Shown piece after piece: positions 12,716 through 23,088 of a DNA stretch of 32,000 nucleotides. This stretch comes from Geminocystis sp. M7585_C2015_104. Lineage in GTDB: Bacteria > Cyanobacteriota > Cyanobacteriia > Cyanobacteriales > Cyanobacteriaceae. Below the pieces are notes generated by a model that saw nothing but the letters and a program-made list of their open reading frames with translations, had not been told where the DNA came from and did no database searches. Location: the NCBI GenBank assembly GCA_015295805.1, contig DVEF01000053.1, forward strand, positions 15,007 through 47,006, written 5' to 3'. Within the stretch, counting starts at the first letter, position 1. Each line of letters starts with the position of its first letter. A program made the position numbers and the translations under genes.

Positions 12716-13864
12716 GTGAAGATAATTTGTTCTCAGGAGCAATTAAAGAATAATTTATCGCTAGTGAGTAGAGTGGTGCCCTCTCGCCCAACCCATCCTA
12801 TTCTAGGAAATGTGTTGTTGGTGGCAGATAAGAGAAAAAACGAGGTAACAGTGACTGGGTTTGATTTGACGGTGGGAATTCAAAGTAGTTTCCCGGCGGG
12901 GGTGGAAGAAGGAGGGGTAATAACACTGCCGGCAAAGTTGCTAAATGATGTGGTAAGCCGTCTCCCAGACGGGGAGATTATTATCACCTACGAGGAAAGA
13001 GAGGAGGAAGAAAACCCGCTGGTGGGGATTCACTGCCTGGGGGGAAGATTTCAGTTGCGGGGAATGAGGGGGGATGAGTATCCTCCTCTGCCTTTAGTAA
13101 GGGAGAATGGGTTTCACTTGCCAGGGGAGGCTTTGACGGAGGGATTAAAGGGATGTTTGTTTGCGGCAAGCAATGATGAGACTAAACAGATTTTAACTGG
13201 AGTACATCTAAAATGTAATGATAATACCATAGAGTTTGCGGCAACAGATGGACATCGTTTGGCGGTGGTGAGGGAGAAAGTAGAAGAAGAGGAAGTAGAA
13301 GGTTATAGCGGCGCTGTAGGATTTGAAATTACAATACCGGCGCGGGGATTAAGAGAATTGGAGAGAATACTGTCTGGGGCTAAGGAAGGAGAAAAGGTAG
13401 AATTGTGTATAGCCTCTAAGGATGTCGCATTTCGACTGAGGGATGTGATACTGACTAGTAGAAGGTTGGAAGGGGCATATCCGGATTATAGCCGATTAAT
13501 CCCCAACAGTTTTCAAAAGACAATGGCAGTGGAAAGAAAAAGGCTGATAGATAGTTTAGAACGTCTTTCGGTTTTTAGTGACCAGAAAAACAGTTTAGTT
13601 AGGTTTAGACTTAATCCTACTAGCAGGGAGTTGACTGTGGCGATAGAGGCGGGGGAGATAGGCAGTGGAAAAGAATCAATGACGGCAGAAATCAGCGGGG
13701 AGGGGTTTGAGATTGGGTTTAACATCAAATACCTGCTGGAGGGTTTAAAGGCTTTCTCCTCTCATGAAGTGAAGTTCCATTTTAACGGCCCAGTGCAACC
13801 AGTGGTGGTAACCCCCCTGGATGGTACCTCTATGACTTATCTTATCATGCCTGTTCAAATATAA
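12716..13864 (+). CDS. dnaN: DNA polymerase III beta sliding clamp
   Basis: MKIICSQEQLKNNLSLVSRVVPSRPTHPILGNVLLVAD and the C-terminal MTYLIMPVQI are typical of DnaN. It uses a GTG start. Two acidic insertions (EEREEEENP, VEEEEVEG) are present. Confidence 0.92.
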   Translation: MKIICSQEQLKNNLSLVSRVVPSRPTHPILGNVLLVADKRKNEVTVTGFDLTVGIQSSFPAGVEEGGVITLPAKLLNDVVSRLPDGEIIITYEEREEEENPLVGIHCLGGRFQLRGMRGDEYPPLPLVRENGFHLPGEALTEGLKGCLFAASNDETKQILTGVHLKCNDNTIEFAATDGHRLAVVREKVEEEEVEGYSGAVGFEITIPARGLRELERILSGAKEGEKVELCIASKDVAFRLRDVILTSRRLEGAYPDYSRLIPNSFQKTMAVERKRLIDSLERLSVFSDQKNSLVRFRLNPTSRELTVAIEAGEIGSGKESMTAEISGEGFEIGFNIKYLLEGLKAFSSHEVKFHFNGPVQPVVVTPLDGTSMTYLIMPVQI

Positions 13865-17586: not shown

Positions 17587-18555
17587 ATGGAAAAAAGACA
17601 ATTGGGCAAGTCAGGGATTGAGATAACGCCTATAATAATGGGCACCTGGCAGGCTGGCAAGAAGATGTGGGTGGGGATAGAGGATTCAGAGAGTATTAAG
17701 GCCATAAGAAGGGCAGTGGAATTGGGTATTAATACCATTGACACAGCGGAAGTGTATGGAGATGGGCATTCAGAGAGGATTGTAGGGGAGGCTATAAAGG
17801 ATGTGCGGGATAAGGTAGTCATAGCCACTAAGGTATTTGCCAACCACCTCAAGTATCATCAGGTGATAGAGGCTTGTAACAATTCTTTAAAAAACCTACA
17901 GACAGATTATATTGACTTGTATCAGATTCATTGGCCTTCTGGAAGTTGGGGTACGGAAGTAGTACCGATAGAGGAAACCATGAGGGCGATGAATAAGTTG
18001 AAGGAGGAGGGGAAGATAAGGGCGATTGGGGTATCTAATTTTTCCCTATCACAGTTACAACAGGCGTGTGAATATGGACAGATAGACAGTATCCAGCCGC
18101 CCTATTCGTTATTTTGGCGGTTTGTGGAAAAACAGATCCAGCCGTGGTGTGTAGAGAGGGGGATTTCCATTCTAGCATATTCGCCATTGGCACAGGGGAT
18201 TTTGACAGGGAAATTTGGGGATAATCCCACCTTTGCTGAAGGAGATCATCGCAAAGACAATCGTCTTTTTCAACCCCCCCATTGGGAAAGGGTGAAGAAA
18301 GCCTTGTCTCAACTGAGGCCCTATGCTGAGAAGTACAATTGCACCTTAGGGCAGTTAGCCATTGCCTGGGTAATCCATCAACCCCAAACCAGTGCGATAG
18401 TTGGTGCTAGGAATGCCCAACAGGTAGAGGAGAATGCCCATGCGGTGGATATAAAGATAACTCCAGAGGATTTAAAGGCTATTAGTGATATTGGTGAAGA
18501 GGTAACCAGGCATTTAGACGACAATCCGGTTATGTGGGATTTCAAAAGGGGATAG
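17587..18555 (+). CDS. Aldo/keto reductase
   Basis: LGKSGIEITPIIMGTWQAG...INTIDTAEVYGDGHSE...DLYQIHWP...IGVSNF are canonical AKR motifs. Confidence 0.9.
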   Translation: MEKRQLGKSGIEITPIIMGTWQAGKKMWVGIEDSESIKAIRRAVELGINTIDTAEVYGDGHSERIVGEAIKDVRDKVVIATKVFANHLKYHQVIEACNNSLKNLQTDYIDLYQIHWPSGSWGTEVVPIEETMRAMNKLKEEGKIRAIGVSNFSLSQLQQACEYGQIDSIQPPYSLFWRFVEKQIQPWCVERGISILAYSPLAQGILTGKFGDNPTFAEGDHRKDNRLFQPPHWERVKKALSQLRPYAEKYNCTLGQLAIAWVIHQPQTSAIVGARNAQQVEENAHAVDIKITPEDLKAISDIGEEVTRHLDDNPVMWDFKRG

Positions 18556-18591
18556 GATGTAGGTGGTAGATGTAGAGTAAGGGGGATTGTA

Positions 18592-18613
18592 GGGGCATAT
18601 AGCAATATGCCCC
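18592..18613 (+). terminator. Perfect 9-bp stem / 4-nt loop hairpin downstream of the AKR gene
   Basis: GGGGCATAT-agca-ATATGCCCC lies 37 nt after the AKR stop. No U-tract follows, so it may be a stabilising or processing hairpin rather than an intrinsic terminator. Confidence 0.35.
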
Positions 18614-19191
18614 GTGGGTGGGGTAGCCAACCACGCAACAAGGATAATCATGTTATTGGGTTCAAGAATTATTTGAGAAAAAGTGGCAATAGAAGGGGTA
18701 ATGCCGGAATGTATAGAAAAACCATGAGAAAAAATATCAATAATCCGTGAGACTATTGCAAAAAGAGGGATGAAGTTGAAAAAGGGAAAAAGGCGGCGAT
18801 GACCCACAGACGAATATAATCATTCTTCAGCAGGGGATTGGGAAGAGTGGCCAATGTGGATAGGAATAACAATCATTTTTGTTGTCAGGCATTCATATTC
18901 ATGATGAGTATTAAAGCAAACCGTAGACTAGTTTTGGGTGTTGGGAGAAAAAGAGGGGAAGACTTGGGGTTTTCGGAAGAGGGGAGAAAAACCAACTTCT
19001 ATCTGCATTTGAAAAGTTAAAGGGGGGAGAGTGAGAATAATAACCCCTTCCTAGAAAGGAGAGTAAATCAGCAGGGGATGGGGAGGCAGACACAAGCAGC
19101 GGGGTGGAGTGGCTAGTGGGGATAAGACTACTAATCCCCTGCCTACCAAGCCAAGATTTATCCCGAGGAGATGGTAAAACAAATATAGACG

Positions 19192-19204
19192 AATGATAAT
19201 CATT
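19192..19204. promoter_or_regulatory. Perfect 6-1-6 palindrome AATGAT-A-ATCATT (Fur-box core)
   Basis: The sequence is identical to the central 13 nt of the classical Fur consensus GATAATGATAATCATTATC. Its context is tagacgAATGATAATCATTgtc. Confidence 0.4.
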
Positions 19205-19697
19205 GTCCCAATTTCAAGGCAGAGGGGATATCAGTCATAATGCCTTGTAGGAAAAAGGGGTGGTTGAATACAGACGAATGATAAAGGTGGGGATTGAGAA
19301 TCCCAAACAACCCTAGTCTAGAGACAACAGGGAATTTCCGGAAAGGTGGTAACAGTGGGATGGCAATAACAATTCTCCTTTTACTGTCAATATCCTTCTA
19401 GGATAGTCGGAAGGATACCAGTAGTAAGAGATAACCAGTCTACTTTCATAGTGGGGAGAATAGGCGGAATAATGATTTCTTACTGTAGGTTATCCGGCGA
19501 AGGGCAACTGAATACAGACAATTATTCTGGGTTTGAAAAGTTATATTAGGGTAGGTGAGAATATTAACTCTCCCCTAGGGGCTTTAAACTGAAATAGAGG
19601 AAATAACGACAAAAAAATTGTGATAGTCTGCATGGATACTACCATAAGGCAGTTTATACTTCCAAAACATCCCCTGGGGGGGTAACTAACCGGTTAT

Positions 19698-19718
19698 GGA
19701 TAATAATATTTATTATCC
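19698..19718. promoter_or_regulatory. Perfect 9-3-9 inverted repeat GGATAATAA-TAT-TTATTATCC
   Basis: Both arms are exact reverse complements. The inner 19 nt, GATAATAATATTTATTATC, match the 19-nt Fur consensus at 16 of 19 positions. Confidence 0.4.
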
Positions 19719-19977
19719 CCGTGTTACAAGCCAGTCTCCCCTTCCAAAAGGGGGTAACCAGTCTAGAGAAGGAAATGATATTGGCAACAAAAATCCCCCC
19801 TTGGAAGTTATCTAGGGAGAAAATAAAGTAGCCAAGCCTGCCAATAACAATTATCCCCTGCTATTGGGGCAACCAGTCTGCCGCCGACAAAAAGAAGATG
19901 GCGATGCCAATAATGATTCTTTCCTGGAAACCACTTAATATGCCAAGGGCCAACGAGTGGTAATTATCTTACTCCTT

Positions 19978-20091
19978 AGGGATATACCAGTCATAGTATC
20001 TTGTGGGAAATCCCTGGTAGGGATTAGCTAAATGTAAGGGAGATACCAGTCATAGTGTCTTGTGGGGAATGGTAAGGATTAGCTAAATGTA
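19978..20091 (+). repeat. Tandem duplication (59 nt + 55 nt)
   Basis: Unit 1 (19978-20036) is agggatataccagtcatagtatcttgtgggaaatccctggtagggattagctaaatgta. Unit 2 (20037-20091) is agggagataccagtcatagtgtcttgtggggaatggtaaggattagctaaatgta. They are about 90 percent identical with two small indels. Confidence 0.85.
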
Positions 20092-20237
20092 GACGAATGA
20101 TAATTATTGGCACGGTATGGATTGGCATGGTATGGAGGCAAGGAGGGGTTGCAATTATAAACCCTCACGGGGAAGGGGTTGTATGAGAAGGGTTTTTATG
20201 GTATTGTAGGCGATGGTACCTTAGGAAGGGGGAGAAG

Positions 20238-20942
20238 GTGTTTATTCTCACCAATGACGATGGGATTGAGGCGGAGGGTATTAGGGTTTTAAAGGAGATT
20301 GTTGAGGGGGAAAAGATAATAGTTGCCCCAGCAGGGCATATTTCCGGTTGTAGTCACCAAGTTACTACCCGTTATCCCCTAACCCTGGAAGAGGTAAAAC
20401 CCGGGGAATATGCGGTAAATGGGACTCCGGTAGACTGTGTGCGTCTAGCGGTGTCTTGTTTGGCGCCCTCTTCTACCTGGGTATTATCTGGTATTAACGC
20501 TGGCGGTAATCTGGGAGTAGACATTTATGTTTCGGGAACGGTGGCAGCGGTAAGAGAGGCGGCGATTTTGGGGTTGAAGGGAATCGCCTTTTCTCACCTG
20601 CGGAAACGCCCAAGAGAAATTAATTGGCAGCTGGCAAAAAAACTGGCGACAAGGGTGTTGGCAGAGTTATTGCCAAAAAGACTGCCCAGGGGGTGTTTTT
20701 GGAATGTCAATTTGCCCCATCTTGATGAGGATTGTAGCCCAGAAATTGTGTTTTGCAAACCCAGTATTGATCCCCTCCCCATTGAGTTTAGAAAAGAAGG
20801 AAACAGTTACTGGTATAAGGGGGAGTATTTGCAGAGGAAAAGGACTGAAAAAACCGATGTAGATGTGTGTTTTTCTGGTAAAATTGCTGTAAGTCTGATT
20901 AGCATTAGCAACCATCCCCATCCTGACGAATATCCCCAATAA
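20238..20942 (+). CDS. surE: 5'/3'-nucleotidase SurE
   Basis: MFILTNDDGIEAEGI...NGTPVDCV...SGINAGGNLGVDIYVSGTVAAVREA are SurE hallmarks. It uses a GTG start. Confidence 0.9.
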   Translation: MFILTNDDGIEAEGIRVLKEIVEGEKIIVAPAGHISGCSHQVTTRYPLTLEEVKPGEYAVNGTPVDCVRLAVSCLAPSSTWVLSGINAGGNLGVDIYVSGTVAAVREAAILGLKGIAFSHLRKRPREINWQLAKKLATRVLAELLPKRLPRGCFWNVNLPHLDEDCSPEIVFCKPSIDPLPIEFRKEGNSYWYKGEYLQRKRTEKTDVDVCFSGKIAVSLISISNHPHPDEYPQ

Positions 20943-22010: not shown

Positions 22011-22550
22011 TACATTGTTGTCATTTATCCGCCAGAATCCCACCATGTCTTTCTACTACCATCCCAGTCACTGTTATTCTGCTTTCTCTTTTCAACTAGA
22101 TGTGTTTGCCATCCTAGCCAATATCATTATGCCCCTTGGCGACTACTGCTGGTGGGGTATATGTCTTGCCGTTATCCTTTGATTTTTCTGGGGTGGACTT
22201 GTTTTTCTAGTCTTCTTCTGAAATGAAAGACACTGGAAGTATTGGGCGTCTGCTGGTGGGGAGGGGTTGTCACCACAGCCAATGGCGGGGGGGGATGTTG
22301 TTTTTTTATTCCTAATAGCCACTAGTATTGGATTCTCATTACGGCTTGTTTGTTTTGTCGGCAAATAGGCATCAAGGAGGGTTATCAAGTAACTGTCATG
22401 TCTGACAGGAGTTTATTTTTGCCGTTGCTAGGATTATTAATTGTTTTTGTCATTGCCGATGGGGCAAGAATTGTTAGTGTATGGGTTATTGTTGTCTGGC
22501 ATCTATTTTACTAGTAGTAAGGGAATTATTATAGCCGTCATTCATGCCAG

Positions 22551-22592
22551 CAGTCAGTGGCAACAAGAGTATCCCTTTTTCTCATCAGATGG
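22551..22592 (+). repeat. Direct repeat, copy A
   Basis: cagtcagtggcaacaagagtatccctttttctcatcagatgg matches copy B at about 34 of 42 positions with one gap. Confidence 0.6.
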
Positions 22593-22693
22593 GAGTTGTC
22601 TTTCGTTTCTCTTGCCTGACACCAGCTGTTTTCGTTATTTACTGGTCATTATTGGCTGTCATTGACGATAATAACTGGCAACCAGCAACATAG

Positions 22694-22734
22694 CAATCAG
22701 TGGTAACAAGAGTATTCCTCTTTCTTTCCGATGG
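22694..22734 (+). repeat. Direct repeat, copy B
   Basis: caatcagtggtaacaagagtattcctctttctttccgatgg lies 143 nt downstream of copy A. The two copies fall in different frames of the local small ORFs, so the similarity is at the nucleotide level, not in protein coding. Confidence 0.6.
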
Positions 22735-23088
22735 CTTGGGTGGGATTTGTATTTCTTTTTTTTTTACTTTTATCTTTTATCCGACACACACCCTCTACCA
22801 GTAATTACTAACAGACTATTGTGACAGATTGTTACAGGGGACTATCTCTACTTTTCCCCTTCTGATATCCACCCCCTCTTTAACAGACACTCCTGTTGTT
22901 TCTTTTACTGCCAAGGTTGAGGAGTTATTTTGTTTGTCGTCTGTCTGATTGTCTAACAGTAACTATCTCCCAGTAACACCCTGCTGATGGTTGGCAACTG
23001 AGAGTATGTTATTGTGGGACATAGGGTCAAGCTATGTTAAATTATATTAAGTTATTTTATCAATGGTAAAGAGAGGGTAAAGGAAAAG

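Follow-up and report, generated by a model that had tools for sequence, protein, structure and literature searches.

On balance, we read the spacer that separates an aldo/keto reductase (AKR) gene from surE in a hot-spring-type cyanobacterium as a non-coding array of local duplications, specific to one clade and evolving by birth and death, that is, as a minisatellite-like "repeat graveyard". The spacer (1682 nt) lies within a stretch of 32,000 nt that was analysed as a whole and is referred to here as the window. Most of its Fur-like AT-rich cores are decaying paralogues of each other rather than maintained operators, and since the AT-rich pieces resemble Fur sites mostly by mutual descent, the spacer is more a curiosity than a novel system of regulation. 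Its main value is as a caution that an excess of Fur-box-like words can come from copying alone: one AT-rich segment copied many times yields a local excess of such words, so that motif density by itself does not demonstrate a regulatory array. In these two related cyanobacteria of hot-spring type, the locus moreover illustrates cleanly how a bacterial intergenic region turns over through continuing duplication and decay, and the spacer could be used as a fast-evolving marker for the clade.

The AKR-surE spacer was the longest of the 24 spacers in the window, followed by spacers of 1078 and 689 nt, and the remainder were ≤ 429 nt. These lengths agree with a preliminary description of the same DNA, in which most other spacers were placed below 450 nt, with the 1078- and 689-nt spacers as two further exceptions. 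Purines made up 61% of the + strand of the spacer. None of three public assemblies from the same species has a gene call inside it and, as described previously, 1.1 kb of it (19094-20237) was free of open reading frames (ORFs) of ≥ 60 aa. The flanking genes were described earlier as having no obvious link to metals, and no metal-related gene was found within 10 kb of the spacer. A homologous spacer of 1533 nt was present at the same place in a sister species. The coordinates of the features discussed below are collected in Table 1.

Table 1. Features of the AKR-surE spacer, in window coordinates. E1 and E2 denote copies of module E.
Feature	Position	Strand	Details
Whole AKR-surE spacer	18556-20237	unstranded	Non-coding array of degenerate direct repeats in the same orientation
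Hairpin after AKR	18592-18613	+	Perfect 9-bp stem, GGGGCATAT-AGCA-ATATGCCCC, 37 nt past the AKR stop
Old ~300-nt duplication, left copy	18786-19054	+	Cores at 18812 and 18865; module E1 at 19002-19054; families D3, D11, D16
Conserved island 1	19168-19208	unstranded	GAGATGGTAAAACAAATA, then Fur-type palindrome 19189-19207
Module family A (AGACGAATGATAAT...), reference copy	19181-19205	+	Family D4
Module family A, other copies	19266-19290, 20085-20109; weaker at 18808	+	
Module B (ATACCAGTCATAGTRTCTTGTGGG), degenerate third copy	19222-19255	+	Listed with the 59-nt duplication
Old ~300-nt duplication, right copy	19280-19578	+	Cores at 19365, 19468 and 19514; module E2 at 19526-19578
Unit D (GATGGCAATAACAATT...TTACTGTCAATATCC...)	19353-19415	+	Single in window; nhmmer E 2.6e-18
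Conserved island 2	19696-19729	-	Palindrome GGATAATAATATTTATTATCC at 19698-19718, 16/19 Fur-type
59-nt tandem duplication, recent	19978-20091	+	2 copies, 86% matches; module B in each; family D2
Conserved island 3 (module B)	20035-20074	unstranded	Top internal conservation, 28/31 nt identical in sister species
Fur-type core	20093-20111	unstranded	13/19; missing from the orthologous position of either relative
Candidate surE promoter	20179-20207	+	TTGTAT, 17 nt (ending TG then G), TATTGT

The repeat content of the spacer was compared with that of shuffled sequences. Direct matches of 13/16 nt numbered 33 in the window spacer versus 8.5 ± 3.3 in shuffles and 35 in the sister spacer versus 5.9 ± 2.4, a 4–6-fold enrichment in the spacers of both species that was absent from coding controls, and this excess upholds the earlier statement that the sequence is not random. 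Repeated 7–9-mers were all direct, consistent with the single prevailing orientation reported before, with no reverse-complement copies in the spacer and almost no copies elsewhere in the window. Tandem duplications of 15 nt (×2) and 59 nt (×2) were present, and self-BLAST aligned the left copy of the older duplication to 19280-19578 over 302 columns with 60% identity (E 6e-8). Tiling of the repeats with a unit D profile was tried and rejected, as true orthologues alone scored and the other modules remained at noise level.

Comparison with the sister species indicated that this array is turning over. The right half of the spacer aligned to its counterpart with a score of 1164 (shuffles, 378 ± 32) and the left half was only weakly similar. 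The neighbouring genes shared ~84% nucleotide identity. Percent identity in a global alignment tolerant of gaps was dropped because shuffled sequences also reached 70%, and conservation was instead assessed with a stricter alignment, BLAST blocks and alignment scores. The 59-nt (×2) and ~300-nt duplications were private to the window, whereas the sister species alone had unit D amplified, into five tandem 64-nt copies with 89% identity, three of which read AATGACACCCC with the AT-rich core gone. The recent tandem copies were far more alike than 4-fold sites are between the species (identity 0.57–0.68) and thus postdate the species split. Between the sister locus, L006, and its close relative L005, a 12–14-nt indel creates or abolishes a perfect AATGATAATCATT. 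No copy-number variation was observed among four loci of the window's own species relative to the window, and outgroup genomes contained neither the spacer nor the AKR-surE adjacency.

Short direct repeats would have served as substrates for replication slippage or unequal recombination, generating head-to-tail copies of 15 to ~300 nt, and these copies would then have decayed through substitutions and small indels. Duplication followed by decay would account for repeats that are all direct and all local, and for several subfamilies that overlap and have an AT-rich core in common. Among the three readings proposed in the preliminary description, a lineage-specific repeat graveyard fits best, given repeats that are local, direct, clade-restricted and turning over. 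Minisatellite or VNTR-type intergenic repeats of bacteria include the mycobacterial MIRU loci and the cyanobacterial STRR and LTRR repeats. The spacer resembles these in being non-coding, with direct repeats, tens of bases long and arranged head to tail, that exceed chance and lack inverted copies, in a copy number and arrangement that differ between related genomes and, presumably, in an origin by slippage or unequal recombination. Unlike them, it is mostly old and degenerate, contains nested units of 15 to ~300 nt and occupies a single locus rather than being dispersed.

This confinement to one locus was seen at several scales. Outside the spacer, module words were missing from 30 kb of the window and from 6.5 kb of flanking sister sequence. 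At the genome level, where module B was the sole probe, its pattern occurred once in the sister genome, at the syntenic locus only, among 185,579 species genomes. Searches of JGI metagenomes (with islands 1 and 3), plasmids and phages gave no match. A dispersed MITE-like family, named earlier as an alternative, is not supported by these searches, of which the genome-wide count covered module B.

The AT-rich core AATRAYRATYATT was present in three exact copies. At ≤ 1 mismatch, 8 of the 9 matches in the window lay in the spacer (0.93 expected for the whole window), and at ≤ 2 mismatches 11 of 23 plus-strand matches lay inside the spacer, which is 5% of the window. The core does recur, but the previously reported figure of ~16 copies requires ≤ 3 mismatches (21 overlapping of 97), where the background is high. 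A prefix rich in G and a TTACTGT/TTGTTGTC suffix, described earlier as usual for the cores, apply to only one subfamily of ~4–5 copies. Matches at ≥ 13/19 to GATAATGATAATCATTATC, the classical 19-bp Fur box of the E. coli type, which may not be the host's motif, numbered 7 in the spacer out of 13 in the window, whereas 0.32 were expected from local-composition shuffles (~20-fold over local expectation), and the only two matches in the window to a TGATAATNATTATCA-type 7-1-7 dyad (12/14) were both in the spacer. The cyanobacterial (Anabaena) FurA consensus, AAATAAATTCTCAATAAAT (PMC4788461), was not enriched in the spacer, which held 1 of 22 matches at ≥ 13/19.

These matches are what would favour reading the whole array as a functional group of operator sites recognised by a regulator of the Fur family (FurA, Zur or PerR), which might serve to titrate that protein as a decoy or to nucleate its assembly. 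Two to three sites in the spacer and its sister are palindromic and good matches, one of them overlapping a promoter-like site in the manner of real Fur boxes; the palindrome of island 1 matched the E. coli consensus at 15/19 positions in the window and 17/19 in the sister species, and the Fur motif of Synechocystis is reported to be similar to other bacterial Fur boxes (PMC8634477). However, we regard such an operator array, which the preliminary description had raised as a titration array, as very improbable. The cores as a class were conserved below their surroundings (51% identity to the sister versus 63% for non-core bases), with no sign of selection on them, in tests that are weak because two or three related genomes were compared. 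Two of the seven right-half cores were essentially absent in the sister species (one entirely in a gap, one with 3/13 bases kept), cores at ≤ 2 mismatches numbered 5 there compared to 11 in the window, and the amplified sister unit mostly lacked its AT-rich half. Within the species, a G/A polymorphism at 20099 converts TGATAAT to TAATAAT and weakens the core at 20093-20111, and most cores were half-sites or degenerate and unconserved. To our knowledge, a decoy array of Fur operators is without precedent. Real Fur boxes lie within about -100 to +50 of where transcription of iron-regulated genes begins (PMC8634477), but no gene of this kind adjoins the spacer.

A narrower role is conceivable for the conserved islands. 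Of the Fur-type sites, those at 19189 and 19699 alone fall in them. Island 1 was 88% identical over 41 nt to L006 1597-1637, and the 18 nt adjoining its palindrome were identical in both species. The palindrome of island 2 is overlapped by a minus-strand promoter-like sequence, GTAACA-16-TATTAT (19727->19700), with an ortholog in the sister species (CTTACA-16-TATTAT with a TG extension, L006 734-761), and the palindrome of island 1 in the window by another, TTGGGA-18-TATATT (19211->19182). The spacer might thus carry a few non-coding transcription units, mainly minus-strand RNAs, with promoters under AT-rich palindromic operators (19168-19211 and 19696-19729) bound by a Fur-family or other dimeric repressor, with ends near the E modules ~150 nt downstream and with the other cores as dead copies. 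Both putative units in the window share a layout in which ~145–150 nt separate the palindrome from a G-rich hairpin that has a TTATTATTCTCAC-type tail behind it, and cyanobacterial repeat arrays that express sRNAs are known (PMC6596454). We nevertheless consider such units unlikely. The island 1 promoter was not recovered in the sister species, where its -10 reads TGTATT, conservation was poor downstream of both putative starts, near 19176 and 19693, terminator-like hairpins were weak and not enriched in the spacer (4 vs 2.7), and the predicted RNAs folded like shuffles (z 0.05 to -1.2). Rfam gave nothing at gathering score and chance-level matches at E ≤ 10, covariation analysis yielded 0 and 1 compensatory pairs, and no stable fold was common to both species. 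The more specific proposal of at least two paralogous minus-strand ncRNAs with Fur-family-repressed promoters, duplicated and lost with the repeats as a lineage-specific, metal-responsive sRNA cluster, is improbable; if the islands did drive metal-regulated transcripts, the locus would show the birth of small regulatory units from repeats.

A tandem sRNA array, the remaining reading proposed earlier, finds no support in these data, which lack a recurring promoter-plus-terminator unit, an Rfam match, covariation or a conserved fold; at 59 and 64 nt, the tandem units fall short of the length needed and contain no consistent promoter-terminator pair. In the NsiR1 array, each repeat is its own transcription unit. 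NsiR1 of heterocystous cyanobacteria (Ionescu et al. 2010) is transcribed from a direct-repeat array under NtcA and HetR control, according to a review (PMC6596454), and the AKR-surE spacer differs from it in having no such recurring unit, highly diverged units and no Rfam family. In Trichodesmium, the same review describes an array of > 6 kb with abundant sRNAs (Pfreundt et al. 2014), made up of 7 repeats of 736–973 bp whose ~250-nt transcribed parts are almost identical (PMC6596454). The spacer is likewise a long non-coding cyanobacterial repeat array without an assigned function; in contrast, its short repeats are degenerate and subject to turnover, which disfavours selection on each copy.

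The spacer could instead descend from a decayed gene or mobile element of the common ancestor of both species, with the repeats being secondary. The restriction of the spacer and the AKR-surE adjacency to the clade would fit this origin, as would the high purine content (65%) of the left half, which is like that of the sense strands of neighbouring genes. We judge it improbable. Each frame of the spacer contained 20–46 stops, the longest ORFs of either species had no Pfam match, a composite of all six-frame fragments of ≥ 24 aa matched nothing among 5.8 billion protein clusters, and translated similarity between the species extended over several frames and across stops; no protein signal pointed to the recognisable frameshifted gene that the preliminary description had allowed for. 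Neither plasmid nor phage searches returned a match, and the excess of direct repeats would be left unexplained. The presence of dnaN 5 kb away (12716-13864), together with oriented, iteron-like repeats, raised the idea that the spacer serves replication or segregation, for instance as an oriC-like cluster of DnaA boxes or a centromere-like iteron array, but this is scarcely credible: GC skew was positive throughout the window without a sign change, the spacer held 4 of 35 DnaA boxes (TTWTCCACA, ≤ 1 mismatch) and no exact one, and the repeats were too degenerate and too weakly conserved for iterons.

Certain observations do count against the repeat graveyard that we favour. About 1.5 kb has been retained in both species since their divergence, which is unexpected for useless bacterial DNA. 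The AT-rich core class occurs in the same orientation in both spacers, in addition to the excess of Fur matches, and the two best Fur-type palindromes both fall in the few conserved islands. Sigma70-like promoter matches, scattered over both strands of the spacer, were enriched in the window (11 vs 4.2 ± 1.8) and in the sister species (7 vs 3.1 ± 1.6). Most of the array is presumably near-neutral, and function probably sits in the AKR hairpin, the two palindrome islands, the 26-nt module B and the surE promoter. The AKR hairpin is probably the 3' end or a stabiliser of the AKR mRNA, and another hairpin, different in sequence, takes the corresponding position in the sister species. By inspection, the candidate surE promoter is likely to be the promoter of surE; it was absent from the output of the consensus promoter scan, lies ~30 nt before the GTG start, and has its sequence conserved across the window, L006 and L005.

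Several further candidates for coding or structured elements were examined and rejected. In a minus-strand array of small proteins, in which the cores would read ATGATTATCATT (MIII...), a few differences looked synonymous, but frames were not kept between species, module B was read in different frames, no Shine-Dalgarno sequence was found, and matches fell in several frames and across stops. A + strand ORF at 19696-19815 appeared to be conserved, but the shared frame extended over 18 codons before a 1-nt indel, with 3 synonymous vs 7 non-synonymous changes. At unit D, a hairpin found only in the window (19378-19430) was significant (z -2.8 and -3.2), but the sister units folded differently and insignificantly (z +0.8 to -1.1), with ≤ 1 compensatory pair, and a structured RNA was therefore rejected. 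The GGGGAT/ATCCCC hairpins pointed out previously were present at 19118-19139 and 19290-19304, but their stability was ordinary (z -0.4 and -0.7), and GGGGAT was in excess over the whole window (75 vs 36.5 expected).

The AKR-surE spacer (window 18556-20237), which separates an aldo/keto reductase (AKR) gene from surE, is with 1682 nt the longest in the window; the next two measure 1078 and 689 nt, and the remainder at most 429 nt. Genes of the window include a psbV-type cytochrome and DUF4079, and the closest named homologues were from Cyanobacterium aponinum, Cyanobacterium sp. Dongsha4 and Geminocystis, which together place the host among cyanobacteria close to Cyanobacterium and Geminocystis. 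Four assemblies of this species in public databases were at least 99.67% identical over the covered part of the locus, and no gene was called in the spacer in any of the three annotated across its full length. On the far side of the AKR gene, the longest minus-strand hydantoinase/oxoprolinase-like ORF starts at a TTG (17601) and shares 15 nt (17587-17601) with the 5' end of the AKR gene. In public calls this gene (1212 aa) starts 90 nt more internally, so that 75 nt remain as a divergent promoter region.

The preliminary description of this spacer, as packed with AT-rich cores resembling the boxes of the metal-responsive regulators Fur and Zur, proved real as a whole, with qualifications regarding core count, flanks, hairpins and the FurA consensus. 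The core AATRAYRATYATT occurred in three exact copies; at ≤1 mismatch, 8 of 9 window matches fell inside the region (whole-window expectation 0.93), as did 11 of 23 plus-strand matches at ≤2 mismatches, in a region that makes up 5% of the window. The proposed figure of about 16 cores was reached only at 3 mismatches, where background is high. The classical Fur box (≥13/19) gave 7 of its 13 window matches inside the region, compared to 0.32 expected from local-composition shuffles, and the Anabaena FurA consensus (PMC4788461) was not enriched. Repeated 7-9-mers in the region were all direct, with zero reverse-complement copies in the region and nearly none elsewhere in the window. Direct 13-of-16 matches numbered 33 (8.5 ± 3.3 in dinucleotide shuffles), an excess absent from two coding controls in the same test. 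The G-rich prefix and pyrimidine suffix ascribed to the cores in general characterised one subfamily but not the others. GGGGAT/ATCCCC, described as forming frequent hairpins here, is an over-represented word, but window-wide (75 vs. 36.5 expected) and in genes and spacers alike, and the two hairpins cited were not unusually stable; the excess of this word may be specific to the lineage.

A degenerate pattern for module B, an element of a 59-nt tandem duplication, had a single match among 185,579 species genomes, namely the syntenic locus (L006) of a cyanobacterial MAG whose bin-name prefix, SRBZ, is also found in a paper on hot-spring MAGs. Outgroup genomes had neither the spacer nor AKR-surE adjacency. 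Neighbouring genes of the window and this sister species shared 80-89% nucleotide identity, and their 4-fold degenerate sites were 57-68% identical, which served as the neutral yardstick. The sister spacer measures 1533 nt. The right halves of the two spacers were clearly homologous (alignment score 1164 vs. 378 ± 32 for shuffles), and the left halves showed weak similarity. Since percent identity from gap-tolerant alignment is meaningless here (shuffles also reach 70%), the comparison was based on BLAST blocks and on a stricter alignment (69% identity vs. 58% for shuffles). In the stricter alignment, identity was 51% at core positions and 63% at non-core positions; of the seven cores covered, one was deleted and one more nearly lost in the sister, whose spacer contains five cores at ≤2 mismatches.

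Both spacers carried traces of duplication. The window spacer contained two tandem duplications, the 59-nt one (19978-20091) and a 15-nt one, as well as an old internal duplication (18786-19054 vs. 19280-19578; 302 columns, 60% identity, E 6e-8), which may be one reason that little of its left half is matched in the sister. The unit orthologous to unit D (window 19353-19415) was amplified in the sister into five clean tandem 64-nt copies (L006 1002-1324; 89% identity, higher-order period 132 nt), which shows ongoing expansion of the locus in the sister lineage; three of the five copies read AATGACACCCC and have therefore lost the AT-rich core. A third genome fragment (L005), close to the sister, differed from it by a 12-14-nt indel (L005 100-125 vs. 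L006 about 395-420) that creates a perfect palindromic AATGATAATCATT, absent in the sister, and may represent conversion from another array module. Within the species, SNPs were few, with three or four in the spacer (20099, 20117, 18948, 18951), one of which turns the core TGATAAT into TAATAAT, weakening its Fur likeness; repeat copy-number variation was not seen. In direct-repeat excess and in differences between relatives, the two testable features, the region behaves like a minisatellite or VNTR-type locus.

Features of the AKR-surE spacer and its flanking genes (window positions)
Feature	Position	Strand	Description
AKR gene	17587-18555	+	5' neighbour of spacer
Hairpin	18592-18613		Perfect; 3' of AKR gene
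Island 1	19168-19208		88% identity to sister; 18 invariant bases, then Fur-type palindrome
Island 2	19696-19729		Palindrome GGATAATAATATTTATTATCC, 16/19 Fur-type
Module B	20035-20074		Best-conserved internal element
Candidate surE promoter	20179-20207		TTGTAT-17-TATTGT with TG extension; kept in all three genomes
surE	20238-20942	+	3' neighbour of spacer

The above-neutral conservation of the pieces tabulated within the spacer is only suggestive, because the windows are short and there were many places to look. The palindrome of island 1 matched the Fur box at 15/19 positions in the window and 17/19 in the sister; a minus-strand promoter-like site that overlaps this island in the window was not recovered in the sister. 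At island 2, a minus-strand promoter-like site overlaps the palindrome, and the scanner found the orthologous site in both species. The assignment of 20179-20207 to surE is our reading of its promoter-like motifs.

Coding searches were negative. Stops numbered 20-46 per frame, the ten longest ORFs of each species' spacer had no Pfam match, and the 54 six-frame fragments of at least 24 aa, combined into a single composite, matched none of 5.8 billion protein clusters. Comparison with plasmids and phages revealed no similarity to the spacer; its origin as a gene or mobile-element relic appears improbable. Rfam searches of both spacers gave no match at gathering thresholds, and the matches obtained at E up to 10 were all at chance level; no tRNA was found in the region. 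Consensus folding of unit D copies showed essentially no covariation on either strand (0 and 1 compensatory pairs). Where the window copy forms a long hairpin (z -2.8 and -3.2), the sister units had a different, non-significant fold. Terminator-like sites were not enriched in the spacer. Promoter-like sites were enriched in both species' spacers, as expected because the words are AT-rich and palindromic.

On balance, we favour reading the spacer as a clade-specific array that would gain length by local duplication and lose it by decay, in which the Fur likeness of most cores would be a legacy of the segment that was copied and would not have been maintained. This is the simplest account of all the evidence, since local duplication and decay would explain why the repeat subfamilies are exclusively direct, exclusively local and overlapping, why recent amplifications are lineage-specific, why individual cores are poorly conserved, and why coding or RNA signatures are lacking. 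It corresponds to the lineage-specific repeat graveyard, one of three readings offered initially; the other two fared worse. A true operator or titration array for a Fur-family regulator, to which the clustered Fur-box matches would point, is quite improbable, as the cores are less conserved than their surroundings and lack metal-gene context. An sRNA array like NsiR1 would differ from this region, which has no unit equipped with a promoter and terminator of its own, nor a conserved RNA structure; moreover, the repeats of the sRNA-expressing cyanobacterial arrays, NsiR1 and the 7-repeat array of Trichodesmium (PMC6596454), are well kept, unlike those of the spacer.

A few operator-controlled non-coding transcripts could instead be embedded in the array. 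The retention of about 1.5 kb in both lineages, the location of the two best palindromes in conserved islands and the one promoter-like site common to both species are the main reservations about the favoured reading and are consistent with this, but putative minus-strand transcripts from islands 1 and 2 folded no better than shuffles, and we consider such transcripts unlikely. Operator array, relic, and a replication or segregation site, the last very improbable indeed, are all less likely than embedded transcripts. Overall, the feature is real and for the most part explained.

The second-longest spacer (22011-23088, 1078 nt) separates the genes for an FMN-dependent dehydrogenase and DUF4079 and has no repeat words in common with the AKR-surE spacer. 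Two small ORFs in it (59 and 74 aa, without Pfam match) are annotated as genes in one public assembly. Short tandem repeats were present at 22754-22781 and 23029-23059, and direct repeats were mildly enriched (11 vs. 3.4 ± 2.1). The cyanobacterial HIP1 palindrome GCGATCGC had zero occurrences in the whole 32 kb. There was no origin-type skew switch in the window, although dnaN is present. GC skew was positive in 15 of 16 two-kb bins regardless of gene orientation (last bin -0.017), so that the plus strand looks like the leading strand, with a skew unusually strong for a cyanobacterium.
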